Assembly (NCBI GenBank): GCA_973895155.1
Contig: OZ316896.1
Span: 7,178,780-7,242,779 of the forward strand
Direction of reading: 5' to 3'
Source: Marsupella aquatica
Taxonomy: Eukaryota; Plantae; Marchantiophyta
Length of the DNA: 64,000 bases
Shown here: positions 8,957 through 56,442 of the stretch, piece after piece
Numbering within the stretch: position 1 is the first letter of the stretch
Layout of the letters: each line of letters starts with the position of its first letter
Position numbers and translations under genes: made by a program
The notes under the pieces: generated by a model
Told to the model about the DNA's origin: nothing
Seen by the model: the letters and a program-made list of their open reading frames with translations, nothing else
Database searches by the model: none

Positions 8957-8974
8957 TCCCCGGCAGCGGCGCCA
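8957..8974 (-). promoter_or_regulatory. Primer-binding site, tRNA-Asp type
   Basis: TGGCGCCGCTGCCGGGGA, one mismatch from the Athila-type PBS TGGCGCCGTTGCCGGGGA. Confidence 0.85.
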
Positions 8975-9830: not shown

Positions 9831-9838
9831 TTATATAC
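9831..9838 (-). promoter_or_regulatory. Putative TATA box of the A LTR
   Basis: GTATATAAGGAG is conserved in all four A-type LTR copies (also ~485, ~48116, ~57985). Confidence 0.6.
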
Positions 9839-12678: not shown

Positions 12679-15600
12679 TATGATGCCTAGACAGGAATCA
12701 CTCGGCCGGTTAAGTGGGTAAAGCAGGAAGGCACCCTAGGAACACCTTAGTATAGTGACAAAACAAGGAAAATATAAACAATTAGGGGCAACCATGGAAC
12801 CCGGGCAGAGGCCGGAGGTAAGGCTGAGGGTGAAAACCCGATTAGGGTTAGGGCGCGTTAAGCGTCGGTGGCTAGGAAGGATCAACGGGAAGAAGGACGG
12901 GCAGAGGAGAGGGGTAAGGAGCGCTTTCAGGAGATGGTGGCTCATTTGCGAGCACGAACTAGGCAGACGACTACGGGAGGCCAACTACTGTCAGCTGCTT
13001 AGGCAAGCACTCGGGGAGAGAGTAGATACCGACGATCAACCTAAGGAGGGTATGAGCAACGTCAATCAAGCGGCACATTTCTGGGGATGCCTGTTCGAAC
13101 GGGCAACTGAGTACATCAAGACTTACGAGGACGAGGAGTCAGAAAGGGCAGCTCGAGAACGGCAGGAGCTCGCTCGATTGTGGGAGCTGCAGAAGACGGC
13201 TTTCTTAGGAGGCGAACTCATCAAGGACGAGTTCCTGTGGACGCCTACTTCCAATCAACTCGACGATCTTCTGTTTTGCAAAGACAACGTCGTCGGCATC
13301 CGAGAGGCCATCAAGAACTGCAACGACATACACTGGGAATTAAAGGGTAGCACGGAAAGGTGGACCCAGGCAACGGTGCTAGGAGAAACCTCCACGGCAG
13401 CAGAGATGAAGAGGAAGGGAGCCGTCAACGATGAAGCCACCCCGGCAAAAAGAACGAGGTCGGCGGCACCAAAGAAGCCAGCCGAGCAGCAGAGCAGGAG
13501 GCAGGGAGAAGCCGAAGAGGAGGAGGTCGATCCCATCAAGGCCATTCCAACCAGGGATGACACCTGGAAGGGCTGGGCGGCAACCCTACCGGTGGAGGTG
13601 CAACTACATTTTGCACGGGAGGAGGATGCATGCTTTACGGCCATGCAGACCAAGAAGTACCAAGGCTTCATGGCCGGATCCGGCTTGGAGGCCTTTGTAA
13701 GATTACCATGGCTGAAGCCGGAGGTACCGGAGTCAGACCTATTAGAATTCGTGGGGTCATGGGAACCCGAGACCAATTGCACGAGGATATATGGGAAGGA
13801 TTTCTATCTTACTCCCAAGGTAATTGCCGAAGTGTTTGGCTTGCCGATAGGCAATAAGACCAAAGTTGATACCAGGAAGACCTTGCCTGACAAGGAGTTC
13901 CGGTCGTTCCCCGGGCCATCAACGAAGAATGGCTTCTTCCGGAACACCTGCACCAACCCGCACATAGGAGAGATGATCGACTTCTTGCGGGTGACCATGC
14001 ATTGTAACTTGCCGAGGGCAGAGATCGGCAAGGCACAGGTCTATCTGGCAGAAAGGCCAGACCCAAGCCGGGACTACAACGGGTACCTCCTCAACCAATT
14101 GAAGAAGATCTTAAAGGAGGAGCAGCAGGTAATCGGCATGGGGAGCGTGTCGCGGCTTGGCTATCACATGCCGCTGTTGTGCCGGTATGCCAGAGGTCAG
14201 ACTTTTGCCCCGGTACTTCCCCTGCAGGTAAGGGCACCCGAGGAAGCTCCAACACCGAGGCCGTTGGCTGAGAAGCCTCAACCACCTGTTAGTCCTACGA
14301 TCGAGCAGGTGTTTAGGCCCAGGAAGGAAGACTTGCCGATGCAGCAACCAGGCATGCAGAGTCTGCTGAAACTACTGGAGAAAGAAAAGAAATCGGCATC
14401 GGCAACAACAACAACAACGGCAACGGCAACAATGCAGGACACTACTACAGAGGTAGGCCTACACCGGCTCACAAGAGAAAACCCCTTTGCTGGAGACAAG
14501 GAGAGAATCAGGCCGGAATCCAAGCCAGGTGTTCGAATGTACGTGGGAACCTCAAGCTCCGAATCTGAGGCAGAATTGCCTGAAGCTCCTACCGACGAAG
14601 AGGAGAGGGAGAAGCCGGACGTCCAAGAGGTAGAGGAGGCAGTGGAGGCCTGCAGCCATGATAATTCCGGCTATGGGTCGGACCATCACGTTCCAGGAGT
14701 AAGGACCTGTGGCCGGTTTGTCCCCACACTTCCAAGGGTAGTGCGAGGGGACCCCAACCAGCAGAGTAGCCCTGAGTCTCCCCCACCAGATGTTGCTCCC
14801 CCGAGCTTTGACGGCATAAAACAGACGGTGCAGGAATTTCAGGAGCGAATCAAGCAGGAGGAAGAGGCCGCCCTGGCTAAGGAAAAGGATTTACCAGGAG
14901 GAGATTGGCCGGAGGACATCAGGCGGCTAGCCGAAAAAGGAAGCAAACCTCTAGCCACGATTGAAGAGATCCGCAGGACGGCTTGGGAGCAGAGGCCACG
15001 ATGGGCGATGCCGATCACTTCTACTTACTCCACCTACGCTAAGAATAGAGCCATGGAGTATGGTGAGATGTGTGGGGAACTTGCGCTCGGCATCTTTGGA
15101 GAGGAGTTGGAGGTAGGACCCTTTTTCCATAGGGAGCAGTTGGAGAAGCACCAATTAGAAGAAGCGGTGGCTTTAGAGAGAAGCAAGAAGGACGAGGTCA
15201 TTCGGCGGCTTAGGAGGATGGGAGCCAAGATTGAAGATCTAAGGGCGGCCAAGAAAGCCCAAGATGAACTGCGGATTAAACGACATGAGCTGAACATCAT
15301 GCAGGGGCAGTTGGACGCCGCGCAGGCTGATAATCAGAATATCAAGGATAAACTGACTCAGACGCAGGAAGAGTTGGCCGACACGATCAAAGAGAGGGAA
15401 AAGTGGAAGCAAGAGCTGAAGAATACAGAGGAGGCCCACATAACAGCCAACAGCCGGGCCATGGCGGAGACCCAAAGAAAGGAATGGGCGTTGAAAGGGG
15501 AGCTCGAGAAAATCCGCGGAGCCCTTGAGCAGAAGGAGGTCGAGTTAGGGAAATCCTATCAAGGGATTATGGCGCTGCAGCAGGAGCTTGCGTCCCTGAC

Positions 15601-17320
15601 GGCCAGCTTCAAGGCCGACCTAAGGGAGAAGGACGAGATGCTCGAACAGACTTACGCCAAGATGAACCAGATGGAGTCTGTCATCATTGCAGAGCTCGAC
15701 AAGGAGCTAAGAGCAACCCAGGAGGAGAGGGCTACCTTGAAGAAGGAATTGGAGGAAGCCCACAGGGAGCAGGAGGAGGCCAAAAACGAGCTGGAGGGGG
15801 CACGTAAGGACCTGGATGAAACCCAAGAGGAGTTGGAGGAAATCACGAGGAAGATGGAGAACCTACAGCGGCGGGCCGACAACCAAACAGAGCGGCTGAA
15901 GAAACAAGCCGCAGTATTTAAATGCTTAGCTGCAGCAGGTCCATCTCCCGTTGGGACAAACCAGTTACCAGGGGTGGTAATTGCCGAAGGACAAGCCGCG
16001 CCACCTGCACCAGTGCCGGAAGTAAGTGGGAAGGGGAAGGGACCAGCTGCCGAGCCACCAACGAAGAAGAAGCGGAAACCTTCAGGGTCAAGGAGTAATA
16101 TGACTTCACAGGCCGTGGTGATCAAGGAGGTAGACCCAGCACCGACCCCAGACAGGGTCACGGCTAAGGATCCAACTACCCTAGGGGAAGGGGAGGCCAA
16201 AGCCGTGGGAGTGGCTGAGGCCGAAGCCGTGGGTATTGCCGAGGCCGGTGTCGAGGCTGAAGCCGAAGGTGGACCCAGTCAGGCCGATGGAGAGTTGACT
16301 CGGTCAAGGGCAGGTAATCTGTCAGTAGGCGGGCCAACGGCAGTGGCTGAGGAGGAAGTGTTGGGGGCGTCCATTGAGGATCCACCACCGGTGTCGTGAC
16401 GGTGCAAGGGCGCCGTTCCTTTTAGGGAGGGCGGACGTGGAGGGAGGAGGCATGAGTGGGCAGGGCGGGCACGGATCTCCACGTTTAGGATTAGGATCAG
16501 AACCAGGAACGGCCCTGACACTTAGCTTAGTGGGATTGCGGTCCCACTGGTAGGAGCAACACTTGTGCTCCTGCCTTGCTGTACATAGGTAGATTCGGGC
16601 AAGTAGATTACTGTTAAGTAGATTAGGCTTACGATGCAAAGAATGGCGGATCCACTACCAGGATAAGTACCTGGGTAGCGGGGAGCTCAGGGCCTCTTCT
16701 TTAGCAAGTTCTTAGTTTGCACCAGCCGGGCTGGGATCAAGTAGTACGAGAAGCTCTCGGTTAGTCATACAGTGACCCTTGTGTATATTCATGTTTCCTC
16801 ATGCCTAAGAGCTGAATAGAGTTGGCCTCACGGCTTAGTTCGCAGAACTTATGTATGAGATGTACTGTTTGTATGGCAAGTGCATGGTATGACTCAGTCA
16901 GAATGAGTCATTTTGCTATTTGTGTGTCGCATTAACTTGTGTGAAGAGTGCCCACATCAACAGAAGGAAGGAAAGTAAGCAGGGGAGTGAGAGTTGGATG
17001 TGTCGAGCTGAGAGAGGTCTTAGCGGCTTAACCAAGCCTATTGGGGATCATTCCGGCGGCGGAATCCAAACATACCTAACAAGACGGAGGGGAAGACAGG
17101 GGAAGACAGGGGAAGGCCTATATTAGGCCGGCTACGTATCTCATGACCCGATGAAGGATCTGTCCAGTATATGTGTGTAAAATGTTAATAGTAGTAGTAG
17201 AAGGTTAGCAGCGTCCCATGCCGCTAAGCCGCGAAAACAGCCTCGCCAAGCACGAAACCTGCGGGAATCGGCTTGAGCTGGGGGGTTTCTTGGGTTTAGG
17301 GAGCCATGGGACGCACCACA
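12679..17320 (+). repeat. Family B 5' LTR (4642 bp) containing a long ORF
   Basis: Starts TATGATGCC; the copies at 28206 and 39216 start TGTGATGCC and each directly follows a PPT. Ends GACGCACCACA, followed by a PBS. Confidence 0.9.
13052..16399 (+). CDS. Intact LTR-encoded protein of unknown function (~1115 aa from MSNVNQ; frame open from 12755): N-terminal domain, central retroelement accessory-type domain, Pro/Glu linker, long coiled coil, basic NLS-like motif
   Basis: Uninterrupted frame. The central motif LPW..EFVGSW...IYGKDFYLTPKVIAEVFGLP resembles plant retrotransposon extra-ORF domains (by eye). Also a heptad-rich E/K/L segment and KKKRKP. The start was chosen by alignment to the family C start MSHTILSSSAIQFW. 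Confidence 0.85.
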   Translation: MSNVNQAAHFWGCLFERATEYIKTYEDEESERAARERQELARLWELQKTAFLGGELIKDEFLWTPTSNQLDDLLFCKDNVVGIREAIKNCNDIHWELKGSTERWTQATVLGETSTAAEMKRKGAVNDEATPAKRTRSAAPKKPAEQQSRRQGEAEEEEVDPIKAIPTRDDTWKGWAATLPVEVQLHFAREEDACFTAMQTKKYQGFMAGSGLEAFVRLPWLKPEVPESDLLEFVGSWEPETNCTRIYGKDFYLTPKVIAEVFGLPIGNKTKVDTRKTLPDKEFRSFPGPSTKNGFFRNTCTNPHIGEMIDFLRVTMHCNLPRAEIGKAQVYLAERPDPSRDYNGYLLNQLKKILKEEQQVIGMGSVSRLGYHMPLLCRYARGQTFAPVLPLQVRAPEEAPTPRPLAEKPQPPVSPTIEQVFRPRKEDLPMQQPGMQSLLKLLEKEKKSASATTTTTATATMQDTTTEVGLHRLTRENPFAGDKERIRPESKPGVRMYVGTSSSESEAELPEAPTDEEEREKPDVQEVEEAVEACSHDNSGYGSDHHVPGVRTCGRFVPTLPRVVRGDPNQQSSPESPPPDVAPPSFDGIKQTVQEFQERIKQEEEAALAKEKDLPGGDWPEDIRRLAEKGSKPLATIEEIRRTAWEQRPRWAMPITSTYSTYAKNRAMEYGEMCGELALGIFGEELEVGPFFHREQLEKHQLEEAVALERSKKDEVIRRLRRMGAKIEDLRAAKKAQDELRIKRHELNIMQGQLDAAQADNQNIKDKLTQTQEELADTIKEREKWKQELKNTEEAHITANSRAMAETQRKEWALKGELEKIRGALEQKEVELGKSYQGIMALQQELASLTASFKADLREKDEMLEQTYAKMNQMESVIIAELDKELRATQEERATLKKELEEAHREQEEAKNELEGARKDLDETQEELEEITRKMENLQRRADNQTERLKKQAAVFKCLAAAGPSPVGTNQLPGVVIAEGQAAPPAPVPEVSGKGKGPAAEPPTKKKRKPSGSRSNMTSQAVVIKEVDPAPTPDRVTAKDPTTLGEGEAKAVGVAEAEAVGIAEAGVEAEAEGGPSQADGELTRSRAGNLSVGGPTAVAEEEVLGASIEDPPPVS

Positions 17321-17324
17321 TTTT

Positions 17325-17342
17325 TGGCGCTAGATGGAGGGG
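17325..17342 (+). promoter_or_regulatory. Primer-binding site, tRNA-Asn type
   Basis: TGGCGCTAGATGGAGGGG lies 4 nt after the LTR CA and resembles the Tat-type PBS TGGCGCTAGAAGGAGG. Confidence 0.8.
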
Positions 17343-17389
17343 GCATTTCTTAAGCCGTGAGATATGAAGTTAGAACGGAAGCGTAGGTA

Positions 17390-17833
17390 ATGACTGACCT
17401 TACGCCGAGGGAAGAAAGAGTGATTCAACGGGAGAGAGCTCGACTGCAGCAGCTCGCCGGGTGGCATGATACACAGCGACTGAGAGGGGCAGAAAGAGCT
17501 GGTAGCTCCGAAACTGGAAGTGGCATCGAAGAAGACATACCAGAAGAAGAGTCGGTAAGGAGAAGTGAGTCTCCAACCGACATGGGGGAACCAGAGGCAC
17601 GGCCAGACGAGAGGCCAGGGACCAGATTGAGCCAGCGGTCGCGCATACATTACAAGGCATTTCATGGGAGAGGAGATGAGGATCCGGACGAATGGGTGGA
17701 TGATTTCGAGGGAACCGCTGCAGCAAATGGAGAATCGGCCATCAAGATGCAGATTCTTCCCGGCCTGTTCAAGGGTGAGGCTAGGCCTTGGTACAGAGCC
17801 TTAGATGTGGAAGATCAAGCCATCTGGGTTTAG
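17390..17833 (+). pseudogene. gag: Truncated family B gag N-terminus
   Basis: YKAFHGRGDEDPDEWVDDF...GEARPW aligns with A gag YKTFHGKPKEDPDAWLEDF...GEARPW. Confidence 0.9.
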
Positions 17834-19561
17834 CGGCTTAACCAAGCCTATTGGGGATCATTCCGGCGGCGGAATCCAAACATACCTAACAAGACGGAGG
17901 GGAAGACAGGGGAAGACAAGGGAAGGCCTATATTAGGCCGGCTACGTATCTCATGACCCGATGAAGGATCTGTCCAGTATATGTGTGTAAAATGTTAATA
18001 GTAGTAGTAGAAGGTTAGCAGCGTCCCATGCCGCTAAGCCACGGAAACGGCCTCGCCAAACACGAAACCTGCGGGAATCGGCTTGAGCTGGGGGGTTTCT
18101 TGGGTTTAGGGAGCCATGGGACGCACCACAGACGCCATCGACCAGCTCAACTTGGAGGTGGCGCGGCTCCAGACTGAAGCCGATGAAGCTGCAAACGAGG
18201 CGGAGGAAGCATTACGGGACAACAAGGCTTTGCAGGACCACGTCACCCTGCTCGTCCTCCAGCGGGGAAAACCTGGGCCCACCTCTGATCAAGGTGGCTC
18301 GAGGTCTCGCCCCGACAAGGGGACCAGCCCTGGTCCAACCACTGCACACACGTAAGGGGTAGTTAGCAAAGGGTAGAAGCAGGCGCCGCGCGAGGCGGTT
18401 AAGTCAGCGGCATCTTTTAGTTAGGCGTAACGACAAAATGACTGTCATTAGGCGCCGATTAGCGGCAGTAGGAAGAATTAGGGCCGGTCAGTTAGGATCA
18501 GCCAACGTAGGATTGAGTCCATCAACGGACTAGAGTTTGTTAGTAGGCTTGGCCGCTGCCATTCCGGTTGGCACACTCGTCGTCAACGGTCAACCGGTCA
18601 GTGCAGCGCGACCAGTAGTCAACAGTTAGTTAGTCAGTAGGTAGTACCCCGAAAGGTAGTATCCTCCGGTTCTCTTCCGCTATGGTAGTATTTAGGCTTC
18701 CCCTTCCGCGATGGGAAGGGGGAGAAGGCTTAGTTATCTCAGCAGAAGAAAGGCGAGGCACGGGGAGTCTCGGCCTGAGTAGGGTCAGAGCGTACCAAGG
18801 AGTGAGAGCCAGAGTCGAGCTTGCTGGGCAAGTGCAAGGCAGGGCCTCGTAGAGACTGGGCATCGACTGCCGTTGGGCCTGCTGACCCCCTTTGAAGTCG
18901 AGTCAACCATGTAAACTGATGCTTCGCTGAGTAAATGTAGTCTTTTCCCCCTAATGTTTCTGAGAGTAACTGGTGTTGTGTGTATGCTTTGTCCGGGCAA
19001 AGGCGCCATTTTAAGGGACGTACCGGGTGCGGACTAATGGTAGGGATTGCCACTCATTGCATGTCACAAGTTCTTGTCACGTCGATGGCTTGAAAAGCCC
19101 CAAGTCGGGAGTTAGTCCGCGTCACTAACTGAGGGAAAATTCCAGCGGTGGAAAATAAATATACCTATGTCAAGTACGAATTATGCGAGTGTTATACCAG
19201 TAAGTATAGCGGCTTAGCCCGACTTAGGGCTATTGAAGGTCACTACACACCTCCTTGCCCAAACCCTCACCCCTACTGGTGGTCGAGGTCGCACCACGAC
19301 ACTAACCCGGATTTAAGGCCCAGGGTAGGGGTGCGACACCACTGCCTCTCCATCGTCGACTTCAGGAGTTGTATGGACGAGTCAACTTTCAAGATACAAA
19401 TCTCCCAGAAGCGGGTTTTTGGAGACTAGTGTATTGACGGCCATACTCTGCTTCCTATGCTCGGGCCCCAAAATCTCGGCTTCGGCTGAGGTCGTGGTGG
19501 CCTCGCTTCCTGAGGGGTTGATGGTAGGCATAATGGCTTCAGCTCCCTGCTTAGCTGGAGT

Positions 19562-28205: not shown

Positions 28206-29390
28206 TGTGATGCCTAGCCAGGAATCATTAGGCCAGTTAAAATAGTAAAATCAGGAGTGTACCCTAGGAAACACCTAAGTAGTATAGTAACAAAAACAGG
28301 GAAATATAAACAATTAAGGGTGACTATGGAACCCGAACCGAGGCCGAAAGTAAGGACGTCGGGGGAGGGAACACGATTAGGGCTAGGGCGCGCTAAGTAC
28401 CGGCGGCTATGGGTAACCAATGGGAAGGAAGACCAGCCAAGGGGGGGTAAGGACCGATCGCAAGGAATGGCGGCTCATTTGCAAGCACGAGCTGTCACGT
28501 CGTAGGCTTCGGCCTTAACTCAGACTTCAGCTTAGACGGGCACATCCCTCGTAAATCTGAGGGTTTGGGCAGGAAGGGAAGCACGTAATGCACCTTATTC
28601 TCGTAAACTAGCGCTAAGTGCGCATACTGCTAAATACAGACACCTCCTAGGTATGGTTTGTGTTCCGCCGCCGGAACGTACCTTAGTCGATAGCAAGATC
28701 GACCCCGGCTTAAGGGCTTCTAAGCCTTCGTGCTGTCCGCCTTCGATCCGGATTCGATGATACAGGTCCTCAACCCGTGCTCGCAACCACTTACCCGCAG
28801 GCTGCACCCTGTGCACGTCTCGGGTAGTGCGTTCGGCCCGGCGCTGCCACCCATATACGAGAAACCCACACACATATGCGCACACATGCATACAATCTCG
28901 ATTTACACGAAGGAAAAATGATGGGAAAGGATTTTACTACAAAGGGAACATATGCGTACACTTAGTTGACACGACAGCCCTGGAATGCACAGGTTCAAGG
29001 CCAAGAGTGCACACTACAACGGAGCCCGGCTCCGCACTCGCCCAGCGAGCTTAGTCCTACCCCCTCCCCTTGGTACTCTGTCATTCCCAGAGGTCGGGAC
29101 TCCCCGCATGTCCCGCGGATGTCCGACTCTGAAACTAAAACCCCCCCTTGCCTCTACCGAGGGGTGCACTAAATACTAAGAGCCAAGGAACGGGGCGTCC
29201 TCCTGCCGAAGATCCGCTGACCAAGGTCCTAACTAAGCTGACAGTCAGGCCGGAAAACGGCTGTGTCTTATTAGAAGATCCTAATCTACGCAGGCTGGAC
29301 AGCAGGGCAGCGCTGCTGTACCTAAGGCAGGTGCCTGTCCCAAGAGCCTGACTAAGCCAATCCTAATCCTAATCTATTCCTACTCCGCCG

Positions 29391-32046
29391 CTAATACCTG
29401 GCACGCTTGCCAGAGCCGCCCGAATGGGAACGGCCATCCCGCTGCCTTCGAAGCCTGTCATTGTCCGCTTTGAGGAGCTGGACCTGGTCTAGCAGAGATT
29501 CGTTCTCTCGCCTCGCCGCGTCCGTCTCCTCTGCTGCCTCCTGACATGCCTCCTCCAGCTGCTGGGCATCGCTCGTCAGTTTACTCGCCAGCTGGTCCTG
29601 CTTCTCGGCCTCGGTTTGGAGCCGCGCCATCTCGGCCTGCAGCGTGGCTATCTCCGTTGCGTCCCGCTGGGCTCGCTCCTCGGCCTCCTCCAGGTCTTTC
29701 TGCCAGGTGACAGCTTGTTTCTTCAAACTGTCAATCTGGTTCCGGAGTCGTGTAATCTCGGCCTCGTTCCCAGCTTTGGCCTGTTCGGCTAGGGCGGTAA
29801 GAGCGTACGCCTTTGCTAACAACTCATCGGCGGCTGCAACCTTGGGTCGTAGTTGCAGAAGCTCAGCCTCTTGAGCCGCCACTTCGTTCTTTAGGTACAC
29901 GGACTCCACCCGGTACCGCTCTATCCTCTGAAGGGCCTCCGACTGGGCCCGACCTGCCTTTACGGCGGCAACCAACTCCTGATTGAAGAAACAGGCTACC
30001 TTCCGGGCCATGAACTCCCCGGTATCCCGGGCAATTTGATGAGAGAAATCTCCTAGAAGCCCGTTCAGAAACGTACCCTGTACGAAGAGTTCTGGGTGGT
30101 CCAAGTTGTGCCTGTCCGGATTTGGGCACGGGCAGACATCAACACGCGCAGGGGCCGGGGCAGTGACGTCCAGCCCTGGGGACATAACGTTGGAAGGGGC
30201 TGGAGTGTCCTCCTGCAGCGATGTCCGGTTCTCCGGAATTGCCACCGGCGGGTCCTTGGGAGACCCGGGTTCGGGTAAGACCTCTGCCGTACCAACTTCT
30301 GTACTTAGCCTGGCTAGTTGGGTCGCATCAACGGTTGCGATGACCGACCCCTCCGGCGCCTCCTCGGTTACGATTACAGCTATTTGTGGAGGTGGGGTGG
30401 GTGAAGCTGGCGTGTCCACTGGACTTCGGGCCTCGGGTTGGGGCCGTCTCTCCAATGCCGGAAAAACCCACCTAGCTGGGACCAGCTTTGTAACGTTGAT
30501 GCGGGGAAGGGTTCGTCGATCAAACCGGGCGTACCACTCAAGAATGATTTCGATGTGGCTAGCGAAATACGCTTTCCCGCCAATGTACAGCGTCTTCCTT
30601 CGCCGCTCCATCTCTTCATGGAATTTCTTAGCGAAGTACGACGCCCATTTCCTAGGTCGATAGTTCTCGACCTGGATGACCTGGGCGGCGGAGATCTCCC
30701 CCCGGGGTTCCATCATGTGGAGAGCGTACCTCTGGAACTCCAGCCGCTCAGCTATCTCGGGCATGAGGCAGGTCCTCATCACGAACCCGTTGTCCACTGA
30801 TCCCTCTGAGGGAAAACTTGAAGATTGGTACTTGGCCCCCTTGCCCCCGGGAGCCCGTGATTCGACTCGATGGTCACCTTCGGGTAACCCGAAGATCATC
30901 TTGAGTCGTTCTTCTGTGAGGGACATATTCCTTCCCCGCAGCCGAGTCTGTTGACGTACGTCGTCATAATTCTTGATGAATTCTGTCATGTCCTCCCCGT
31001 AGTACCTGCAAGTGTTCCAGGGGAGAGAGGCGAGGTGCTCAAATCCCTGAGTCTTCAGGTACACCGCATGCTTGGGATGGAGGATGTTGCTGTGAACGTT
31101 TTCCCCCATGCGATGCATCGTTACCTTGGCTACGGCTACCGTGGCCAACGGTAACCCGGATGCACTGGCGGATTCCTTCCTCTTCTTTCCCCGTGACTGA
31201 CTCGGGGAAGGTGATACTTCCCCATCCTCCCGATCGGGCCTGGGGAGTGCCACCGCGGTTGGTAACGGGCCCGGGGCGGCCACGGTCACCATGTTGTCTG
31301 CTGGGGCCGCTCCTGGGGTCAGAGCAGGGGGTGGGGACGATATAGTGTCGGCCCCCCGAGCGCTCACTAACCTTATTGGCCTCCCAAGTGTGAGGAAGGA
31401 TCTGTGGGGTAGCCTCGTCGTCATCGCTAAGATCCACAGCGTTGATGACGGAGCGTACCTGTGCTGGCTGGGTGATAGGTGGTGGGGTTTGGCTAGGCCG
31501 CGGCTGAGGCTGAAGCTGAAGCTGAGGTTGCATGGGCACGGGTACGGGTACGGGTACGGGTCCGACTGAGTTGGTCATGTTGGTTGATGGCCGAGTTCCC
31601 ATGAAGCTCTATAGGTGCTGGTAGAAGTTCTCCGAAGCGAGTGCGGACGCCCTTGTCGAACAGTTGGTACTGGACTCGCCGTTAATGACAGCCCGAACCT
31701 GGGCAGGGATGTGGTCGAAGTGATGTCGCTGCAGGTCAATTGTACCCGGGATATTGAAGACCTCGTCCGGAAGCCGAAGCAATGCTTCCCAGAACCCGAT
31801 ATATTTGTCTCCGTTGAAGAAGTACCCACATACCTCAGCTGGTCGGTAAAGCTCGCTCTGAGACGGGTAGTCAAAGTTAAGGACGTAGTGGTGTCGTCCT
31901 GCTAGGCGGATGGCTCTCTCGTATTCGTGTTCGATCTCGTATTGGCGCGGGTTGGCGTGTTTCAATGAATCGGCCAAGTGCCTTCCGGTAGATAGGAACT
32001 GCGTCCAGAATTGAATGGCCGAGCTGGAGAGGATCGTGTGCGACAT
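29391..32046 (-). pseudogene. Family C LTR-encoded ORF (~885 codons ancestrally; one CAG>TAG stop near 31609 and one frameshift near 31400)
   Basis: The 145-aa, 187-aa and 677-aa ORF pieces join into one frame when compared with copy C2. Homologous to the B ORF. Confidence 0.85.
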
Positions 32047-32147
32047 TCAGAGGAGATAGTAGTGGCGACCTAGAGAGAACGAGAGAGCTGGGGTCGAAGC
32101 TGGCGCGCGGACTGATGGACTGGTGCACTACAAAGGGTTGGCTCCCC

Positions 32148-32155
32148 TTTTATAT
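32148..32155 (-). promoter_or_regulatory. Putative TATA box upstream of the C ORF
   Basis: ATATAAAAGGGG ~100 nt upstream of the ATG at 32046, followed by a CT-rich leader. Conserved in C2 (~56077-56084). Confidence 0.55.
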
Positions 32156-32613
32156 TTTGAGGGCTTGTCGATCCTCGACGTCTCCTCGACGCCCATAGGT
32201 TGAACCGCTCACGCTTGTGGTGTACCGGCCACTCCGCCGGTCTGAGTCAGCGTGTGTCAGTGGCCGCTTCCTTAAGTTCGTTATACGGACCCGAGGGAGG
32301 GGCCCCTCCACGCTCGTAACCCGGGTGTGCGAATAGCGACCCGCCGCCAGCCCGAACCTGAAGTCCCCCTTATTGCCTAATGATGTCCTACCCCTAATGA
32401 TTACCTAAATACTGTCGTTATGCTAATAATAGCGACCTAAGACCCTAAACCCTAATGCGCGTGCCGAGCGCAGTTAGACTGAATCACTCATTAACCGCCG
32501 TACCGGCGGCGTCACACGAGCCAAGCGGACGACTAAGGGAGGCCAACTACTGTCCGTTGCTCAGGCAAGCACTCGGAGTGGAAGCAGATACCGACAATCA
32601 AATCAAGAAGGGT

Positions 32614-34851
32614 ATGAGCAACGTCAATCAAGCTGCTCATTTTTGGGGATGCTTGTTAGAACGGGCAACTGAGTACATTGGGACCTACAAAGACAAAGAA
32701 TTGGAGAGAGCGGCTCGAGAATGGTAGGAGCTCGCTCGACTATGGGAATTGCATAAGTCTGCCTTCTTAGGAGGAGAACTCATTATGGCTGAATTCTTGT
32801 GGACGCCTACTGCCGACAAACTCGCCGATCTTCTGTTTTGTGAGAACATAATAGTTGGCATCCGGGAGGCCATCAACCGCTGCAATGACATACACTGGGA
32901 GTTGAAGGGTAGCACAAAGGGGTGGACAAAGGCAACCGTGCTAGGAGAAACATCCACGGCAGCCGCTATGAAGAGGAAAGGGAATAACAACAAAGAAGCC
33001 ACCCCTACGAAAAGAACGAGGTTGGCGGCACCCAGGAAACTAGTAGAGCAGGGAAGCAGGAGGCAGGCGGAAGCCAAAGAGGAGGAGGTCAACCCCATCA
33101 ATGCCGTTCCAACAAGAGATGACACATGGAAAGGCTGGGTGGCGACCCTCCCCGAGGAGGTGCAATTACACTTTGCACGAGAAGAGGATGCATGCTTTAC
33201 GGCTATGCAGACTCGGAAATACCAGGGCTTCATGGCTAGATCCGGCTTGGAAGCCTTCGTAAAGTTACCATGGCTGAAGCCGGAGGTGCCGGATTTGGAC
33301 TTACTAGAATTCGTGGGATCATGGGAGCCCGAGACCAATTCCACAAGGGTGTATGGGAAGGATTTCTATCTCACTCCCCGGGTGATCGCCGAAGTGTTTG
33401 GCTTGCCGATGGGCAATAAGACCAAAGTAGATACCAGGAAGACCTTGCCAGACAAGGAGTTTCGGTTGTTTCTAGGGCCATCAACAAAGAATGGCTTCTT
33501 TCGAAACACCTGCACCAACCGCACATAGGAGAAATGATCGATTTCTTGCGGGTGACCATGCATTGTAACTTGCCGAGGGCAGAGATCGGCAAGGCACAGG
33601 TCTATCTGGCGGAGAGGCCAGACCCAAGCCGAGACTACAACGGGTACCTCCTCACCCAACTAAAGAAGATCTTGAAGAAGGAACAACTGGTGATCGGCAT
33701 GGGAAGCGTGTCCCGGCTTGGTTATCATATGCCACTGTTGTGCCGGTATGCCCGAAGTCAGATATTTGCCTTGATACTGCCCTTGCAGGCAAGAGCACCA
33801 GAGGAGGTTCCGGAACCGAGGCCGGCAACAGAGAAACCGACCCAGCCCGACAGTCCTACAATCGAGCAGGTGTTTAGGCCGAGGAAGGAGGACTTGCCGA
33901 TGCAGCAACCAGGCATGCAAAATCTGCTGAAATTGCTAGCAAATGAAAGGAGAACGGCAACGGCAATGGGACCGGTACAGAATACTGCTCCCAAAGTTGG
34001 CCTTAGCCAACTTACCAGGGAAAACCCCTTTACCGAGATCAAGGAGAGAAGGAGGCCGGAACACGAGCCGGGAGTCTGAATGTATGTAGGAGCTTCAAGT
34101 CCCGAAGCCGAGGAAAAGCAGCCTGAAGCTCCTGGTCACGACAGGGAGAAGATGAGATCAACGTGGAAGCTGAAGGAACCAGGACCCGTGATCTGTGAGG
34201 CCGTGTTCATGGCAAGACCAGGACGGCAGCCGGGGGAGCCGGTAGTCCAAGCCGAGGAGGAGGCGGTAGAAGGCTACGACAATGATGACTCCGTCTACGG
34301 GTCGGACCATCATTTTCCAGCAATAAGGACCTGTGGCAGGTTCATCCCCACGCTTCCAAGAGTAGTTCGAGGGGACCCGACCCAACAGAGCAACCCCAAG
34401 TCTCCCCCACCAGATGTCGCTCCCCCGAGCTTTGACGGCATAAAATAGACGGCACAGGAGTTTCAAGAATGACTCAGGGAGGAAGAAGAGGCAGCCCCGG
34501 CTAGGGAGAAGGATTTACCAGGAGGAGGATGGCCAGAGGACATCAGGCGGCTTGCAGAAAAATGAAGTAGCCCGCCAGCCACGATAGAAGAAATTTGCAA
34601 GGCGGCTTGGGAACAAAGGCCGCGGTGGATGATGCCGATGACTTGTACTCACTCCGCCTATGCTAAAGAACGAGCCATGGAGTACAAGGAGATGTATGGG
34701 GAACTTGTGCTCGACATCTTTGGGGAGGAGTTAGAGCAGGGACCCTTTTTCCAGAGGGAAATGTTGGAGAAGCGCCGATTAGAAGAAGCGGTGGCTTTGG
34801 AGAGAAGCAAGAAGGACGAGGTCATCCATCGGGGGCAAGGGAAGCTGAGGT
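32614..34851 (+). pseudogene. Family B LTR-encoded ORF, degraded copy
   Basis: MSNVNQAAHFW... pieces match 13052-15235, with stops and a frameshift. Confidence 0.88.
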
Positions 34852-39215: not shown

Positions 39216-39592
39216 TGTGATGCCTAGCCAAGAATCACTAGGCCGGTTTACATGGTAAAAGCAGGAGTGTACCCTGGAAACACCTTAGTATAGTAACAAG
39301 ACAAGGAAAATATAAACAATTAAGGATGACTATGGAACCCGGGCCGAGGCCGGAAGTAAGGACGTTGGGGGAGAGAACACGATTAGGGTTAGGGCGCGCT
39401 AAGCGTCGGCGGCTAGGGGTGACCAACGGGAGGGAAGACCAGAGGAGGAGAGGGGTAAGGACCACTCGCGAGGAATGGTGGCTCATTTGCAAGCACGAAC
39501 TGGGCAGACGACTACGGGAGGCCAAATACTGTCAGCTGCTTAGGCAAGCACTCTGGGTGAGAACAGATACCAATGATCGAGTCAAGGAGGGT

Positions 39593-42500
39593 ATGAGCAA
39601 CGTCAATCAAGCGGCACATTTTTGGGGATGCCTATTCGAACGGGCAACTGAGTACATTGGGACTTACGAGGACGAAGAATCAGAGAGAGCAGCTCGAGAA
39701 CGGCAAGAGCTTGCTCGACTGTGGGAGCTGCAGAAGTCTCCCTTCTTAGGAGGAGAACTCATCAAGGCCGAGTTCTTGTGGACTCCTACTGCCAATCAGC
39801 TCGATGACCTTCTGTTTTGCGAAGACAGAATCGTCGGCATTCGGGAAGCCATCAACCGCTGCAACGACGCGCACTGGGAGTTGAAGGGTAGCACGGAAGG
39901 GTGGACAAAGGCAACTGTGCTAGGAGAAACATCCACAGCAGCCGAGATGAAGAGGAAAGGAAACAACAATGAAGAGGCCACCCCGGCAAAAAGAACGAGG
40001 TTGGCTGCACCAAGGAAACCAGTAGAGCAGCAAAACAGGAGGCAGGGAGAAGCCGAAGAGGAGGAGGTCGATCCCATCAATGCCATTCCAACAAATGATG
40101 ACACGTGGAAAGGCTGGGCGGCGACCCTACCAGAGGAAGTGCAATTACATTTTGCACGGGAGGAGGATGCATGCTTTACGGCCATGCAGACCAAGAAGTA
40201 CCAGGGCTTCATGGCCGGATCCGACTTGGAAACCTTTGTAAGATTACCATGGCTGAAGCCGGAGGTGCCGGACTCAGACTTATTAGAATTTGTGGGATCA
40301 TGGGAACCCGAGACCAATTCCACGAGGGTGTATGGGAAGGATTTCTATCTCACTCCCCGGGTGATTGCCGAGGTGTTTGGCTTGCCAATGGGTAATAAGA
40401 CCAAGGTTGATACCAGGAAGACCTTACCTGACAAGGAGTTCTGGTCGTTCCCAGGACCATCAACAAAGAATGGCTTCTTCCGGAACACTTGCACCAACCC
40501 GCACATCGGAGAGATGATTGATTTCTTGCGGGTGACCATGCATTGTAACTTGCCGAGGGCAGAGATCGGCAAGGCTCAGGTCTACCTGGCAGAAAGGCCA
40601 GACCCAAGCCGGGATTACAACGGGTACCTCCTCAACCAACTAAAGAAGATCTTGAAGGAGGAACAGCAGGTGATCGGCGTGGGAAGCGTGTCCCAGCTTG
40701 GCTATCACATGCCGCTGTTGTGCCGGTATGCCAGAAGTCAAATCTTTGCCCCAGTACTTCCCCTATCGGCAAGGGCACCGGAGGAAGTTTCGGAGCAGAG
40801 GCCGGCAACAGAAGAGCCCAACCATCCTGTCAGTCCTACGATCGAGCAGGTGTTTCGGCCAAGGAAAGAAGACTTGCCGATGCAGCAATCAGGCATGCAA
40901 AATCTGCTGAAAATAATGGAGAAGGAGAGAACGGCACCAGCAACGGCAACAACACCGGTACAGGACACTGCCCCAGAGGCCGGCCTAAGCCAACTCAGGA
41001 GGGAAAACCCCTTTACCAGAGCCAAGGAGAGAAGTAGGCCGGAACACAAGTCGGGAGTGCGAATGTATGTGGGAGCCTCAAGCCCCAAATCGGAGGCAGA
41101 GCAGCCTAAGGCTCCTTCTCACAGAGAGCAGAGGGAGAGGATAGCCTGGAACCGAGAGAAGGAACAAGGGCCCGTGATCTGTGAGGCCGTTTTCACGGCA
41201 GGACCAGGGGAACAGAGGGGGAAGTCGGGAGTCCAAGCAGTGGAGGAGGCGATGGAGGACTACAACAATGATAACTCCGGCTATGGGTTGGATCATCATG
41301 TTCCAGGAGTAAGGACCTGTGGCCGATTTATCCCCACGCTTCCAAGAGTAGTTTGAGGGGACCCCACCCAGCAGAGTAGCCCCGAGTCTCCCCCACCAGA
41401 GGTTGCTCCCCCGAGCTTTGACGGCATAAAGCAGACGGCACAAGAATTTCAGGAGCAACTTAGGGAGGAAGAGAAAGCAGCCCTGGCTAGGGAGAAAGAT
41501 TTACCAGGAGGAGATTGGCCGGAGGACATCAGGCGGCTTGCCAAAAAAAGAAGCAACCCTCTTGCCACCGTAGAAGAAATCCGCAAGGCGGCTTGGGAAT
41601 AGAGGCCGAGGTGGTTGTTGCCGATGACTTCTACTTACTCCACCTATGCTAAAGATAGAGCCATGGAGTACGGGGAGATGTGTGGGGACCTGGCACTCAG
41701 CATCTTTGGGGAGGAGTTGGAGCAGGGACCTTTCTTCCAGAGGGAGAGGTTGGAGAAGCACCGATTAGAAGAAGCGGTGGCTTTGGAGAGAAGCAAGAAG
41801 GACGAGGTCATCCGACGGCTTAGGGAGAAGGAAGCCGAGGTGGAAGTCCTGCAGGCAGCCAAGAAAGCCCAAGATGAGCTGCGGATTAAGCGGCATGAGC
41901 TAAACATCATGCAGGGGTAGTTGGATACCGCTCAGTCTGACAATCATATCAAAGATAAACTGACTCGGACCCAAGGAGAGTTGGCCTGCGCAGTCAAGGA
42001 AAGAGAGAAATGGAAGCGGGAGCTAAGGGACGCAGAGGAGGCCCACTTAACCGCCAACAACCATGCCATGGCGGAGACTCAGAGAAGGGAGAGGGCGTTG
42101 AAAGGAGAGCTCGAAGATATCCACGGAGCCCTTGAGCAGAAGGAAGCAGAGTTAGGGAAATCCTATCAAGGGATTATTGCGCTGCAGCAGGAGCTTGCGT
42201 CCCTGACGGCCAGCTTCAAGGCCGACCTGCGTGAAAAGGACGACCAGCTCGACCAGACTTATGCCAAGATGAATAAGATGGAGTCTGTGGTCGTAGCAGA
42301 GCTGGACAAGGAGCTAAGAGCAACCCAGGAGGAGAGGGCTACCTTAAAGAAAGAATTGGAGGAAGCCAAAAAGGAGCTGGAGGAGGCGCGCAAGGACCTG
42401 GACAAGACCCAGGAGGAGTTGGAGGAAATTACGAGGAAGATGGAGAACCTACAGCGGCGGGCCGACAACCAAACAGAGCGGCTGAAGAAACAAGCCGCAA

Positions 42501-43015
42501 TATTTAAATGCTTGGCTTCATCAGGTCCAACTCCAATTGGGGCAACCCAGTTACGAGGGGTAGTATTGGCCAAAGGACAAGCCGAGACACTCACCCCGGT
42601 GCCGGAGGTAAGTGGCAAGGGGAAGGAACTGGCTGTCGAAATAGGGAAGAAGAAGAAGCGGAAACCTTCTAGGTCTGGGAGTTATACGGCTTCTCAAGCC
42701 ATTATGACCGAGAAGATAAACCCGGCACCAACCTCCGGCATCGGCACGGCGGTGGATCCACCAGTCCTAGTAAGTGGGGATGGCAAGGCCGAGGCCGGGA
42801 CAACCAGTAATGAAGCCGAGGTACCAGATCCTCCACTAGAACATGCCGGGGAGGCCGTGGCCGATGCTCAGGCCGAAGCCGAGGGTGGACCCAGTCAGGC
42901 CAATGAAGAGTTGACTCGGTCCGGGGCAGGTAATCTGTCAGAGGATGGACCAACGACAGTGGTTGCGGAGGAAGCGTTGGGAGTGTCCATTGAGGACCAG
43001 CCACCGGGGTCGTGA
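39593..43015 (+). pseudogene. Family B LTR-encoded ORF with three in-frame premature stops and no frameshift
   Basis: ORFs 39326-41356, 41615-41920 and 41921-43015 share one frame. The stops correspond to CGA or CAG codons in B1. Confidence 0.9.
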
Positions 43016-43501
43016 CGGTGTAAGGGAGCCGTCCCTTTTAGGGAGGGCGGACGTGGAGGTAGGAGGCGTGAGTGGGCAGGGCGGACGCTAATCTCCAAGT
43101 TTAGACTAAGGATCAGGACCAGGAGACGGCCCTGACACTTAGATTAGTGGGATTGCGGATCCATGAGTGAGGGCAACACTTGTGCTCCTGCCTTGCTGTA
43201 CATAGGTAGATTACAGTTAGGTAGATTATAGTAAGTAGATTAGGCTTACGCTGCAAGGAATCAGGCGGATCCACAACCAGGTTAAGTACCTGGGCTACGG
43301 GGAGTTCAGGGCCTCTTCTTTAAACAAGTTTTTAGTTGCACCAGCAGGGCTGGGATCAAGTAGTAAGAGAAGCTCTCGGTTAGTTATACAGTGACCCTTG
43401 TGTATATTCATGTTTCCTCATGCCTAAGAATTGAATAGAGTTGGCCTCACTGCTTAGTTCGCAAAGCTTGTGTATGGGATGTACTGTTTGTATGGCAAGT
43501 G

Positions 43502-44523
43502 GTAATGGTAATGGTAATGGTAATGTATTATAAGCTTCGGGACCATGAAAGTCAAAGGAGCTGCCACAAAAAGTAAAGTACAATGCAATCAAAGAAAAGA
43601 GCAACCAAAAGAGATTGCTCAGAAGAGGACAACTATGTCCTCAAAGAAACTATGGACCTAGAGAGCAATGAAAGATTTTCCAAACCTATTCTCCTTTCCC
43701 TATCCACCGCAAAGATATATCTTCCAAGTTGCTGAGGGGGCAGACCAAACAATGCATACAAATCTTTCACCAAGATTTGAGATGCCATCCTAACCCCCTC
43801 ATAAAACTTGCAAGCAATGAATACATGATATTCATTCTCGATACTAGAGCTATCACATAGTTGACAAACCCTCTTTTTCCTGTCAATATCCTTCCATCTC
43901 CCTTGTTCTACTTCAAGGTGGTGTGAGCTTAGTCTATATTGCAATAAGTTGTCTAAGTTGTACTGAGATAGTGCTAGATAAGTATTCTTGTTATCGATAT
44001 TTCTTCATGGGGTTCACATCTCTCATGTAGTATTGTTGCCGTGGGCTAGGTTCATGCCAAATTTTGTGCAAAGCCTTTTGCTCAAGTTTTTCTCTTAGCT
44101 TGGTTGAGTGTGTTGGCCATTCATGTTCAGGAAAATCCCAAGCATGGGCCCACCTGCACACATCTGCATACCACCCTTTAGCTGAAGATGAGCGCAAGGC
44201 ATGAAAAGGAAATCTGTTTTCCTCCAACTCTCTTACACGCATGATGTATTTGAGTGTGTGGAAGAGTGCCTCCACCTCCAAAGGAAACAAGCCTGCCTCT
44301 GCAAGTGTAAGTGTATATGGGGTTTGTGACTTGATCCCAAACTCCATCTCAAGAAATAGCTTTTGCAGCCCCTCAATCTGTTGCCACCCAGATTTAGACA
44401 CACCTGCTCCCCAAATTGGTGCTCCATAAAGAATGACTGGTTTCACCAAAGCTCCAAAGAGATGTTTCCTTAACCTCCAAGTGTGTAGACCAGCTCTTTT
44501 GCATTTGTTCATGAATGCATAAA
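43502..44523 (-). mobile_element. 5'-truncated LINE inserted in the B3 LTR
   Basis: (GTAATG)4 tail; TSD AAGTG at 43497-43501 and 44524-44528; the empty site is at ~16875-16885. Confidence 0.93.
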
Positions 44524-44952
44524 AAGTGCATGGTATAACTCAGTCAGAAGGAGTCATTTTGCTATTTGTGTGTCGCATTAACTTGTGTGAAGAGTGCCCA
44601 CATCAATGAAGGGAAGTAGCAAGGGAGTGAGAGTTGGATGTGTCGAGCTGAGAGAGGTCTTACCGGCTTAACCAAGCCAATTGGGGATCATTCCGGCGGC
44701 AGAATCCAAATATACCTAAAGAAAGCGAGGGGAAGACAAGGGAAGGCCTAGATTGGGCCGGCTACGTATCTCATGGCCTGATGAAGGATCTGTCTAATAT
44801 ATATGTGTAAAATGTTAATAGTAGTAGTAGAGGAGATTAGCAGCGTCCCATGCCGGTAAGCCACGGAAACGGCCTCGCCGAGGACAAAACCTGCGGGAAT
44901 TGGCTTGTGTCGGGGGGTTTCTTGGGTTTGGGGAGCCATGGGACGCACCACA

Positions 44953-52443: not shown

Positions 52444-55400
52444 TGTCACGTCGTCAGCCTTGGCCTTACTCCGGGCTTCGGCTTAAATAGGCACATCCTT
52501 TGTCAAAATGAGGTTTCGGGCAGGGAGGGAGGCACGGAATGCACCCAACTTACATAAAATAGCGCTAAGTGCGCCTATCGTCATATACGGACACCTCCTA
52601 GGTATGATTTGTGTTCCGCCACTGGAACGTACCTCAATCGATAGCAGGATTGACCCTGGCTTAAGGGCTTCTAAGCCTTCGTATTGTCCGCCTTTGATCC
52701 GGATTTTGGTGGTATGGGTGCTCAACCCGGGCTCGCAACCACGTACACGCAAGCTGCACCCGTGCGCTACTTGGGTAGTGCGTTCGGCCAAGCGTTGGCA
52801 CCTATACACGAGATTCACACACATACATACGCACAAGCATAAAATCTCAAGTTATACAAAGGAAATAACGGGAAGGGATTTTACTCCATAAGAGACATAT
52901 GCGTACACTTAGTTGACCCGAATGCTCTGGAGTGAACAGGTCCGAGGCCGATGGTGTACACTACAATGGAGCCCGGCTCTGCACTCGCCCAACGAGCTTA
53001 GTCTTACACCCTCCCCTTGGTACTCTTCCACTCCCAGAGGTCGGGACTCCCCGCACATACCGCGAATGTCCGATACTGAGACTAAAAAAACCCCCTGCCT
53101 CTACCGAGGGGTGCACTAAATACTAAGGGCCGAGGAACGGAGTGTCCTCCCACCCGAATATTTGCTAACGTAGGTCCTAACTAATTTGACTGTCAGGCCA
53201 AAAAACGGCTATGTCTTATTAGAAGATCCTAACCTACACAGGCTGGACAGCATGGCGGTGCTGCTCTAACTAGGGCAGGTTCCTGTCCCCATAGCCCGAT
53301 TTAGCTATTCCTAACCCTTTTCTATTCCTACTCCGCCGCTAATGCCTGGCACGCTTGTAAGAGCCGCCTGAGTGGGAGCGGCCATCCCGCTGCTTATGAA
53401 GTCTATCGTTGTCCGCCTTGAGGAGCTGGACCTGGTCCAGCAGAGATTCGTTCTCTCGCTTTGCCGCATCCGTCTCCTCCGCTGCCTCTTGGCATGCCTC
53501 CTCCAGCTGCTGGGCATCGCTCGTCAGCTTGCCCGCCAGCTGGTCCTGCTTCTCGGCTTCGGTTTGGAGCCGCGCCACTTCGGCCTGTAGTGTGGCTATC
53601 TCCGCAGTGTCTTGATGGGCCCGTTCTTCGGCCTCCTCCAGGTCTTTCTGCCAGATGACAATTTGATTCTTCAAACTGTCAATCTGGTTCCGGAGTCGTG
53701 CAATCTTGGCCTCGTTCCTAGCTTTGGCCTGTTCGGCTAGGGCGGTAAGGGCGTGCGCCTTTGCTAACAACTCATCGGCGGCTGCAACTTTGGGTCGTAG
53801 TTGCAGAAGCTCAGCCTCTTGAGCCGCAACTTTGTTCTTTAAGTATACGGACTCCACCCGGTACCGCTCTATCCTCTGAAGGGCCTCTGACTGGGCCCGA
53901 CCTGCCTTTACTGCGGCAACCAACTCCTGATTGAAGAAACAGGCTACCTTCCGGGCCATGAACTCCTCGGTATCCCGGGCAATTTGATGAGAGAAATCTC
54001 CCAGAAGCCCGTTCAGAAATGTACCCGGTACGAAGAGTTCCGGGTGGTCCAGGTTGTGCCTGTCCGGAGTTGGGCACGGGCAGACGTCAACACGCGCGGG
54101 GGCCGGGGCAGTGACATCCAGCCCTGGGGATGTAGTGTTGGAAGGGGTTGGAGTGTCCTCTTGCAGCAATGTCCAGTTCTCCAGAATAGCCACCGGTGGG
54201 TCTTTGGGAGATCCGGGCTCGAGTAAGGCCTCCGCTATACCTACTTCTGTACTTGGCCCGACCTGTTGGATTGCATCTACGGTTGCGATAACCGACCCAT
54301 CCGGTACCTCCTCGGTCACAACTACAGCTACTTGTGGAGGTGGGGTGGGTGAAGTCTGCGTGTCCGCTGGACTTCGGGCCTCGGGTTGGGGCCATCTCTC
54401 CAAGGCCGGGAAAACCCACCTAGCTGGGACCAGCTTCATAACGTTGACACGGGGAAGGGTTCATCGATCAAACCGAGCGTACCACTTGAGAATGATCTCG
54501 ATGTGGCTAGCGAAATACGCCTTCCCGCCAATGTATAGCGTCTTTCTTTGCCGCTCCATCTCTTCATGGAATTTTTTAGCAAAGTACGACGCCCACTTCC
54601 TAGGTCGATAGTTCTCGACCTGGATAACCTGGGCAGTGGAGATCTCCCCTCGGGGTTCCATCATGTGGAGGGCGTACCTTTGGAACTCCAATCGCTCAGC
54701 TATCTCGGGGATGAGGCAGGTCCTCATCACGAACCTGTTGTCCACTACTCCCTCTGAGGGAAAACTCGAGGATTGGTACTTGGCTCCCTTGCCCCCGGGA
54801 GCCCGTGATTCAACTCGATGGTCACCTTCGGGTAACCCGAAAATCATCTTGAGCCGTTCTTCTGTGAGGGACATATTCCTTCCCCGCAGCCGAGTATGTT
54901 GATGTGCGTCATCATAATTCTTGACGAATTCCGTCATGTCCTCCCCGTAGTACCTGCAAGTGTTCCAGGGGAGAGAGGCGAGGTGCTCGAATCCCTGAGT
55001 CTTCAGGTACACCGCATATTTGGGATGGAGGATGTTTTTATGCACGTTTTCCCCCATGCGGTGCATTGTCACTTTGGCCGCGGCTACCGTGGCCAATGGT
55101 AACCCGGATGCAGCGGCGGGTTCCTTCCTCTTCTTCCCCCGTGACTGGCTCGGGGAGGGTGACACCTCCCCATCCTCTCGATCGGGCATAGGTAGTGCTA
55201 CCGCCGTTAGTATTGGGCCCGGGGCGGCCACAGTCACCGTGTTGTCTGCTGGAGCCGCTCCTTGGGTCCGAGCATGGGGAGGGGACAATGTAGTGTCGGC
55301 CCCCTGAGTGTTTGCTCCTCTGGGCCGCCTGAGCAAGGGTGGGGTAGCCTCGTCGTCGTCGCTAAGGTCCACAACGTTGATGACGGAGCGTACTTGTACT

Positions 55401-56442
55401 GGCGGGGCGATTGGCGGTGGGGGTTGGCTAGGCTGAGGCTGAGACTGAAGCTGAGCCTGAGTCTGCATTGGTGCGGGTACGGGTATGGGGTTGACTGGGC
55501 CGGCGCCGGCGGTTGAGGGTCTAGTTCCCATGAAGCTCTGCAGGTGCTGGTAGAAGTTCTCTCAAGCAAGTGCAGACGGCCTTGTTGAACGGGTAGTGCT
55601 GGACTCGCTATTGATGATAGCCCGAACCTGAGCAGGGATGTGGTCGAAGTGATGTCGTTGCAAGTCGATCGTACCCGGGATATTGAAGACCTGGTCCGAA
55701 AACCGAAGCAATGCTTCCCAGAAACCGATATATTTGTCTCCATTGAAGAAGTACCCAGATACCTCTGGTGGTCGGTAAAGCTCGCTCTGAGACGGGTAGT
55801 CAAAGTTAAGGATATAGTGGTGTCATCCTGCTAGGCGGATGGCTCTCTCGTACTCGTGTTTGATTTCGTATCAGCGCGGGTTGGCGTGTTTCAATGAGTC
55901 GGCCAAGTGTCTTCCGGTAGATAGGAACTGCGTCTAGAATCGAATGGCCGAACTGGAGAGGATCATGTGCGACATTCAGAGGAGATAGCAGTGGTGACTA
56001 AGAGCGAACGAGAGAGCTGGGGTCGAAGCTGGCGCGTGGACTGATGGACTGGTGCACTACAAAGGGTCGGCTCCCTTTTTATACTTTGGGGGCTTGTCGA
56101 TCACCCGACATCTCCTCGTTGCCTATAGGTTGAACCGTTCATGCTTGTAGTGTACCGGCCACTCCGCCAGTCTGAGTCAGCGCGTGTCAGTGGCCGCTTC
56201 CCTAAGTTCGTTATACGGACCCGAGGGAGGGGCCCCTCCACGTTCGCAACCCGGGCATGCGAATGGCGACACGCCGCCAGTCCGAACATGAATTCCCCTT
56301 ATTGACTAATGATTTTCTACTCATAATGGTTAACTAAATACTGTTGTTATGCTAATAACGGCGGCCTAAGATACCCCTAACGCGCATGCTAAGCGCGGTC
56401 TAGACTGAATTACTCATTACTCGCCATACCGGCGGCATCACA
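52444..56442 (-). mobile_element. Family C solo-LTR-like element C2 (3999 bp)
   Basis: TGTCACG...ATCACA, collinear with C1; TSD CTTTT/CGTTT (one mismatch). Confidence 0.86.
53339..55975 (-). pseudogene. Family C LTR-encoded ORF, copy 2 (premature stops)
   Basis: The 356-aa and 366-aa pieces share a frame; the upstream part matches the C1 145-aa ORF. Confidence 0.85.

Follow-up and report, generated by a model that had tools for sequence, protein, structure and literature searches.

Can the long terminal repeat (LTR) of a plant retrotransposon house a complete protein-coding gene? The question is raised by a 64,000-nt stretch of the genome of the liverwort Marsupella aquatica (contig OZ316896.1, positions 7,178,780–7,242,779; hereafter the window, in which all loci described here lie). 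The window (GC content 49%) holds a nest of decayed retroelements, which we assign to families A to D, numbering the copies of each. An initial annotation proposed that the recurring 4.6-kb unit of family B is an LTR containing a gene for a protein of ~1115 amino acids. The B unit is indeed an LTR, and we have high confidence in the architecture of a gene within it.

The family B unit as a giant LTR

The primer binding site (PBS), the polypurine tract (PPT), the terminal dinucleotides and the target-site duplication (TSD) agree in delimiting a 4.6-kb LTR. The B1 LTR opens with TATGATGCC (TA), closes with CACCACA and is followed by a PBS that we take to be of the tRNA-Asn type (Table 1). B2 and B3 open with TGTGATGCC (TG), each directly after a purine tract downstream of the reverse transcriptase, RNase H and integrase domains (RT-RH-INT), and B3 covers the LTR unit from end to end (4715 bp once a piece of a long interspersed nuclear element (LINE) at ~43502–44523 is subtracted). 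The TSD GACGC flanks the whole of B1 (12679–18130), at 12674–12678 and 18131–18135, and the homologous uninterrupted sequence of C2, corresponding to the empty site, holds a single copy of the 5-mer. With TG...CA ends between PPT and PBS, a TSD and the domain order RT-RH-INT, the element belongs to Ty3/gypsy.

B1 is young, since the 301-bp ends of its LTRs are 98.3% identical (K 0.017). An internal deletion took the PPT along with the greater part of both its gag-pol and its 3′ LTR, most likely after insertion. Because only the last 301 bp of that 3′ LTR persist, none of the elements in the window displays two complete copies of the gene; nor does any insertion there have two whole LTRs, B2 and B3 lacking their 5′ ends, and the B1 gag is thus linked to the B2 and B3 pol through the LTR that they share. 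The B1 gag stops (17829), and the gag after B4 starts (62191), at adjacent residues, ~3 nt apart in reading, which could reflect coincidence, short gag/LTR-end homology or a hot spot.

In B3, RNase H is followed directly by the integrase, which ends at the PPT and has no chromodomain, marking a non-chromovirus element that fits the Athila clade as defined in REXdb. The additional RNase H of the Tat clade (Ogre, Retand, TatI-III) was found neither between RNase H and integrase nor after the integrase, the decayed protease-RT region of B having been scanned in part. Because pol abuts the PPT at the LTR border, the internal slot for Athila-type extra open reading frames (ORFs) is absent, as is a long stretch of non-coding sequence separating pol from the 3′ LTR; both features are common in the Athila clade but not obligatory. 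The B element may belong to Athila, Phygy, Selgy or an unnamed clade of non-chromovirus Ty3/gypsy elements.

The LTR gene and its homologues

The longest ATG-initiated frame in B1 spans 12794–16399 (1201 amino acids). However, its codons 1–86 evolve neutrally (dN/dS 1.30, B1/B3), so the second ATG, at 13052, is the likely start; the resulting 1115 codons match the size first proposed and fill 72% of the LTR. The initial observation that the gene occurs in both a 5′ LTR (B1) and a 3′ LTR (B3) was borne out as regards its presence but not its integrity, as the B3 copy has premature stops at 41354, 41600 and 41918 and only the B1 copy is intact. The ORF lies inside the LTR unit in all four B copies, whose divergence reaches dS 0.59.

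Pairwise Nei-Gojobori comparisons, leaving out codons with stops or gaps, gave dN/dS values far below 1. For B1/B3 the ratio was 0.29 overall (N-terminal domain 0.15, core 0.09, coiled coil 0.19, tail 0.66), for B1/B2 it was 0.20 (core 0.10) and for B1/B4 0.50 (coiled coil 0.12, tail 0.90), with pol controls at 0.15 and 0.13. The frame-preserving indels noted initially were confirmed: lengths are multiples of three in 8/8 cases between B1 and B3 (one being the 21-nt, 7-residue indel in the coiled coil), in 4/4 against B4 and in 2/3 against B2. The LTR gene is under purifying selection. Its synonymous divergence between B1 and B3 (13052–16399) is 0.38, three to four times that of the non-coding tail (16400–17320; 0.08–0.11); the B LTR tail appears to be under strong constraint or subject to exchange between subfamilies.

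Each of the three B heads has a TATA-like box ~90 bp from the LTR start. It is 24 bp upstream of the neutral first ATG, which would accordingly fall at or before the transcription start.

The gene is not confined to family B. D1 and D2 are 4.0-kb TG...CA units, D1 being inserted in B2, and each carries a homologous gene in the LTR sense (tblastn E 4e-18 and 1e-16, respectively; ~25% identity). The D gene reaches 5′ beyond the listed ORF to ~32046, the extra part matching a homologue, P0004 (E 1e-15), and being broken in both copies. Its dN/dS is 0.22 overall and 0.12 in the core, and a TATA-like box lies at +363 of the LTR (~32154 in D1). The idea that the gene survives solo-LTR formation holds insofar as these two solo LTRs physically contain it, but both D genes are broken. 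The C1/C2 homologue matches B at E 1e-8 and D at 7e-28; because both C copies are truncated on the 5′ side, the LTR status of this unit is likely but short of shown. A gene inside the LTR is a lineage trait, conserved across families B, C and D. These homologues, like the predicted fold described below, go beyond the initial annotation.

That the true LTR is short (~300 bp), with the gene a nested insertion or part of the internal region, is suggested by the 301-bp right-hand repeat of B1 but is very improbable, being largely refuted by the lack of a PPT before that remnant, the TSD enclosing 12679–18130, the B2 and B3 starts directly after a PPT, the identical layout of D1 and D2 as TG...CA units with TSDs, the lack of short LTRs around the ORF and selection across dS values of up to 0.59.

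The LTR ends of B, C and D also share a 30-nt box, 170–270 nt from the LTR end, that is absent from family A at two mismatches; the pattern was derived from these B, C and D copies themselves, so that its computed chance of occurrence is biased, but the invariant downstream ATACCTA lies outside it. Its small hairpin shows double changes in two of six pairs among seven related copies, too little to establish an RNA structure, and LTR-tail folding was unremarkable in all five sequences (z −1.1 to +0.4). The box was found neither in a metagenome scan nor in viral contigs, and there were no Rfam matches and no tRNA genes. Short TAGATTA/GATTAG repeats, tandem in B3, occur directly past the stop codon (43199–43242, 16580–16630 and the D tail near 29370) and are a possible binding or promoter motif. 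Telomere-like GGGTTTAGGG / TTAGGG words occur in LTR heads and ends (17290–17310, 12840–12860 and the D head).

Homologues of the core occur in liverworts, those of Calypogeia fissa being annotated as unnamed host proteins. In two Riccia sorocarpa gene models (P0062 and P0070) the core homologue is joined to a DDE_Tnp_4 (Harbinger-type) piece; the core may also travel on liverwort DNA transposons, or the models may join neighbouring genes. Word-indexed searches confirmed no homologue among 6236 candidates for a single protein (residues 90–480) or among 1920 longer proteins for an alignment, and metagenome scans with P0012 gave 103 pattern matches, none confirmed. The alignment search at near lengths returned 12 of 6133; ten of them carry DDE_Tnp_4 and align with no more than about a quarter of the query, or with none of it. 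These were probably pulled in by the flanks of two rows and were not used.

The neighbouring family A element (1–12177) has an intact 1992-residue gag-pol in Ty3/gypsy order and a 3184-bp LTR without a long ORF. Its two LTRs are 99.97% identical over 2831 bp, and it is a very recent insertion into C1. The family A LTR is rich in short tandem repeats, and its PBS (TGGCGCCGCTGCCGGGGA; 8952–8993, − strand), presumably of the tRNA-Asp type, is separated from the LTR end by ~20 nt rather than 0–5 nt. One LINE has left several young pieces (98–100% identical, with (TGGTAA)n ends) in B and C elements. A diverged (~80%) B LTR-end fragment at 49864–50051 (− strand) lacks the shared box.

Table 1. Positions of the features within the window
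Feature	Position	Strand	Description
B1 5′ LTR	12679..17320	+	4642 bp
TATA-like box	12770..12778	+	AAATATAAA; kept in B1, B2 and B3; may serve as promoter for the LTR gene
LTR gene	13052..16399	+	1115 aa, intact; N-terminal domain, VANC/PMD-like core (predicted), linker, coiled coil, basic patches, no membrane helix
Box common to B, C and D LTR ends	17051..17078	+	small inverted repeat TTCCRGCGGYGGAA, then AAAY(C)ATACCTA
B1 primer binding site	17325..17342	+	18 nt, TGGCGCTAGATGGAGGGG, 4 nt past the B1 LTR end
B1 gag start	17390..17829	+	cut by internal deletion; matches A gag residues 43-120
B1 3′ LTR, last 301 bp	17830..18130	+	98.3% identical to 5′ LTR end
C1	12179-12678 plus 18131-19338		target into which B1 inserted
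C2	19562..22050	-	3′ part of third-family unit; homologous gene (stops) and shared box
B2 3′ LTR	28206..34851	+	after gag-pol remnant (24269-28205) and PPT; D1 inside, LINE cuts; gene broken
D1 solo LTR	28493..32516	-	4024 bp; TSD CGAGC; homologous gene ~32046-29391, 5′ part broken
B3 3′ LTR	39216..44952	+	complete; preceded by RT-RH-INT (36502-39215) and PPT; three stops in gene; tail holds LINE piece
D2 solo LTR	52444..56442	-	flanks CTTTT/CGTTT (4/5 match); homologous gene with stops
B4	62192..64000	-	3′ part of further B LTR, extends past window edge
LINE pieces	22086-24142, 34848-36491, 38633-38652, 43502-44526

Predicted fold and possible role of the protein

Sequence searches reveal little about the LTR protein: nothing in the PDB scored under E 0.2, Pfam gave only coiled-coil noise on the ORF, and the protein has no hydrophobic segment. 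Structure prediction gives its core the fold of VANC21 (PDB 9lnk/9lnj), a DNA-bound protein, with likeness over ~90% of the domain at 9–10% sequence identity; this is a DUF1985-type fold, matched with moderate scores. Foldseek with the B model gave no match at E ≤ 0.001 in the PDB and viral sets, VANC being absent among the matches listed. The DUF1985 sequence domain was not found in the window proteins and was found, below cut-off, in one of 43 homologues; PF10536 (plant mobile domain, PMD), PF20167 (Transposase_32) and PF03078 (ATHILA) gave no gathering-score match in either set, only sub-threshold and atlas leads.

On these grounds we lean, with modest confidence, towards a model in which the gene product has the VANC/PMD fold, binds DNA in the nucleus and likely protects the element against silencing by the host. 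The C-terminal coiled coil would oligomerise the protein and the basic patches would direct it to the nucleus, where it would bind element DNA and counter silencing. Reverse transcription would copy the gene to both ends of the element, so that expression would be possible from 5′, 3′ and solo LTRs alike; the presence of two copies per element is inferred from the 5′ and 3′ LTRs of different insertions. Against this model weighs the outcome of a search for VANC-type target motifs, in which no dispersed 7–9-mer stood clearly above shuffles in seven B, C and D regions. TTAG, a motif picked by eye, exceeds shuffles ~2–3-fold on the sense strand of all eight non-coding B, C and D segments (0–6 of 200 shuffles reach the observed level) and is not enriched in the A LTR (65 of 200); the segments are related, and the excess is common to the families, not family-specific.

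We think it likely that the gene lies in U3 rather than R. It would then have its own TATA promoter and share the poly(A) region of the LTR tail; the genomic RNA would start within that tail, placing gag near the cap. Were the gene in R, which we consider somewhat unlikely, the TATA box near the LTR start would be the sole promoter, the genomic RNA would carry the gene at both ends and gag-pol would be expressed from a spliced or internally started RNA. The only TATA box common within families does lie upstream of the gene, and none is common in the tails; yet gag would then be preceded by a 4.6-kb leader containing a long ORF, and its expression would call for another RNA, and in the sister family A the TATA lies ~840 nt and the AATAAA ~690 nt from the LTR end. 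The choice alters the transcription map but probably not the role of the protein. The likeliest origin would be a shift of the plus-strand primer to the end of pol, through which U3 would have gained a 3′ extra ORF; such uptake is suggested by the fact that pol ends at the PPT and the 3′ extra-ORF slot is gone.

The same LTR gene and fold might instead serve replication, the protein either tethering the integration complex to nuclear chromatin or DNA or activating transcription by binding one LTR site, such as the shared 30-nt box. The insertion of B, C and D elements into other retroelements, the integrase without a chromodomain, the single conserved box in place of motif arrays, and the coiled coil and basic patches would all suit such a role. 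However, family A, with a similar gag-pol and PPT and no long LTR ORF, is nevertheless young in the same nest, and chromatin silencing is what known proteins with this fold act on; we regard a replication role as unlikely. An env-like or particle protein (movement, chaperone or structural) is improbable and was rejected: related Athila extra ORFs are called env-like in the available text of PMC7264820, and the long coiled coil would fit, but the protein has no hydrophobic segment, its fold matches a DNA-bound protein and no viral model matched at E ≤ 0.001.

Significance for plant retrotransposons

Protein coding within LTRs, duplicated by reverse transcription, is familiar from the U3 genes of retroviruses (mouse mammary tumour virus sag, the human immunodeficiency virus nef overlap and foamy virus bel/bet). 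These encode unrelated and much shorter proteins, whereas the B gene occupies 3.3 kb in a plant element. Cassandra, a terminal-repeat retrotransposon in miniature, resembles B in having a gene-derived cassette, a 5S-related sequence, in plant LTRs; in the descriptions available, however, the element is non-autonomous and the cassette is an RNA gene, with a pol III promoter, rather than a protein gene. The literature searched (main texts of CC-licensed PMC and bioRxiv papers) yielded no account of a plant LTR that contains a protein gene.

Very long LTRs are known, up to ~5 kb (PMC6317226) and 1.9–6.5 kb in Ogre (PMC6431247). In the portions of the sources available, long LTRs are treated as non-coding (PMC7264820, PMC6317226, PMC3485330, PMC6431247, PMC11728184) and extra ORFs are classed as internal, upstream or downstream of gag-pol (PMC6317226, PMC7264820, PMC3485330, PMC11728184). 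Like the B gene, the extra ORFs of Athila (ORF1/Transposase_32), Ogre (PMD), Retand (Transposase_28) and ATLANTYS are accessory genes of non-chromovirus elements, and their products and the B protein alike combine a globular domain of the same broad kind with a coiled coil. Those ORFs are internal, whereas the B gene lies inside the LTR and its product has no Pfam match above cut-off. VANC, a DNA-binding protein with which the VANDAL Mutator-like DNA transposons counteract host silencing, shares with B the predicted core fold, a coiled coil and the status of a transposon-encoded accessory gene; it differs in being encoded by a DNA transposon rather than in a gypsy LTR, and in that no tandem motif arrays were found for B, whose activity is predicted. 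VANC is reported to be dicot-specific in the accessible part of PMC13547354. The PMD proteins MAIN, MAIL1 and MAIL2 have a fold reported to be common to VANC DUF1985. PMD-A, which like the B gene is gypsy-encoded, is reported from angiosperms and, in the partial sources at hand, not from LTRs; B lacks a PF10536 match. Thus, the kind of protein is already known from extra ORFs, and what is new is the LTR location together with a predicted VANC-like fold in a bryophyte-type retroelement.

What extra ORFs do in plant retrotransposons is described as an open question in the available text of PMC7264820 and PMC6317226, and the structural link to VANC21 directs attention to DNA binding and anti-silencing. 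Because annotation schemes place extra ORFs only 5′ or 3′ of gag-pol and treat LTRs as non-coding, LTR genes would be missed or called host genes. Whether hosts acquired the PMD fold from gypsy elements or gypsy elements acquired it from hosts is likewise open (PMC5418596), and the liverwort homologues bear on that direction. If correct, our reading would put the VANC/PMD fold in early-land-plant retrotransposons, with a bearing on the origins of VANC and MAIN.

Tentatively, a liverwort gypsy lineage may have made its LTR a full anti-silencing cassette, in which a VANC-like gene with promoter and terminator is combined with a target site in one 4–4.6-kb repeat. Each insertion would then bring two gene copies and each solo LTR would retain one, so that recombination, the host's main deletion route, would leave a trans-acting activator of the family behind. 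Solo LTRs would not be inert.

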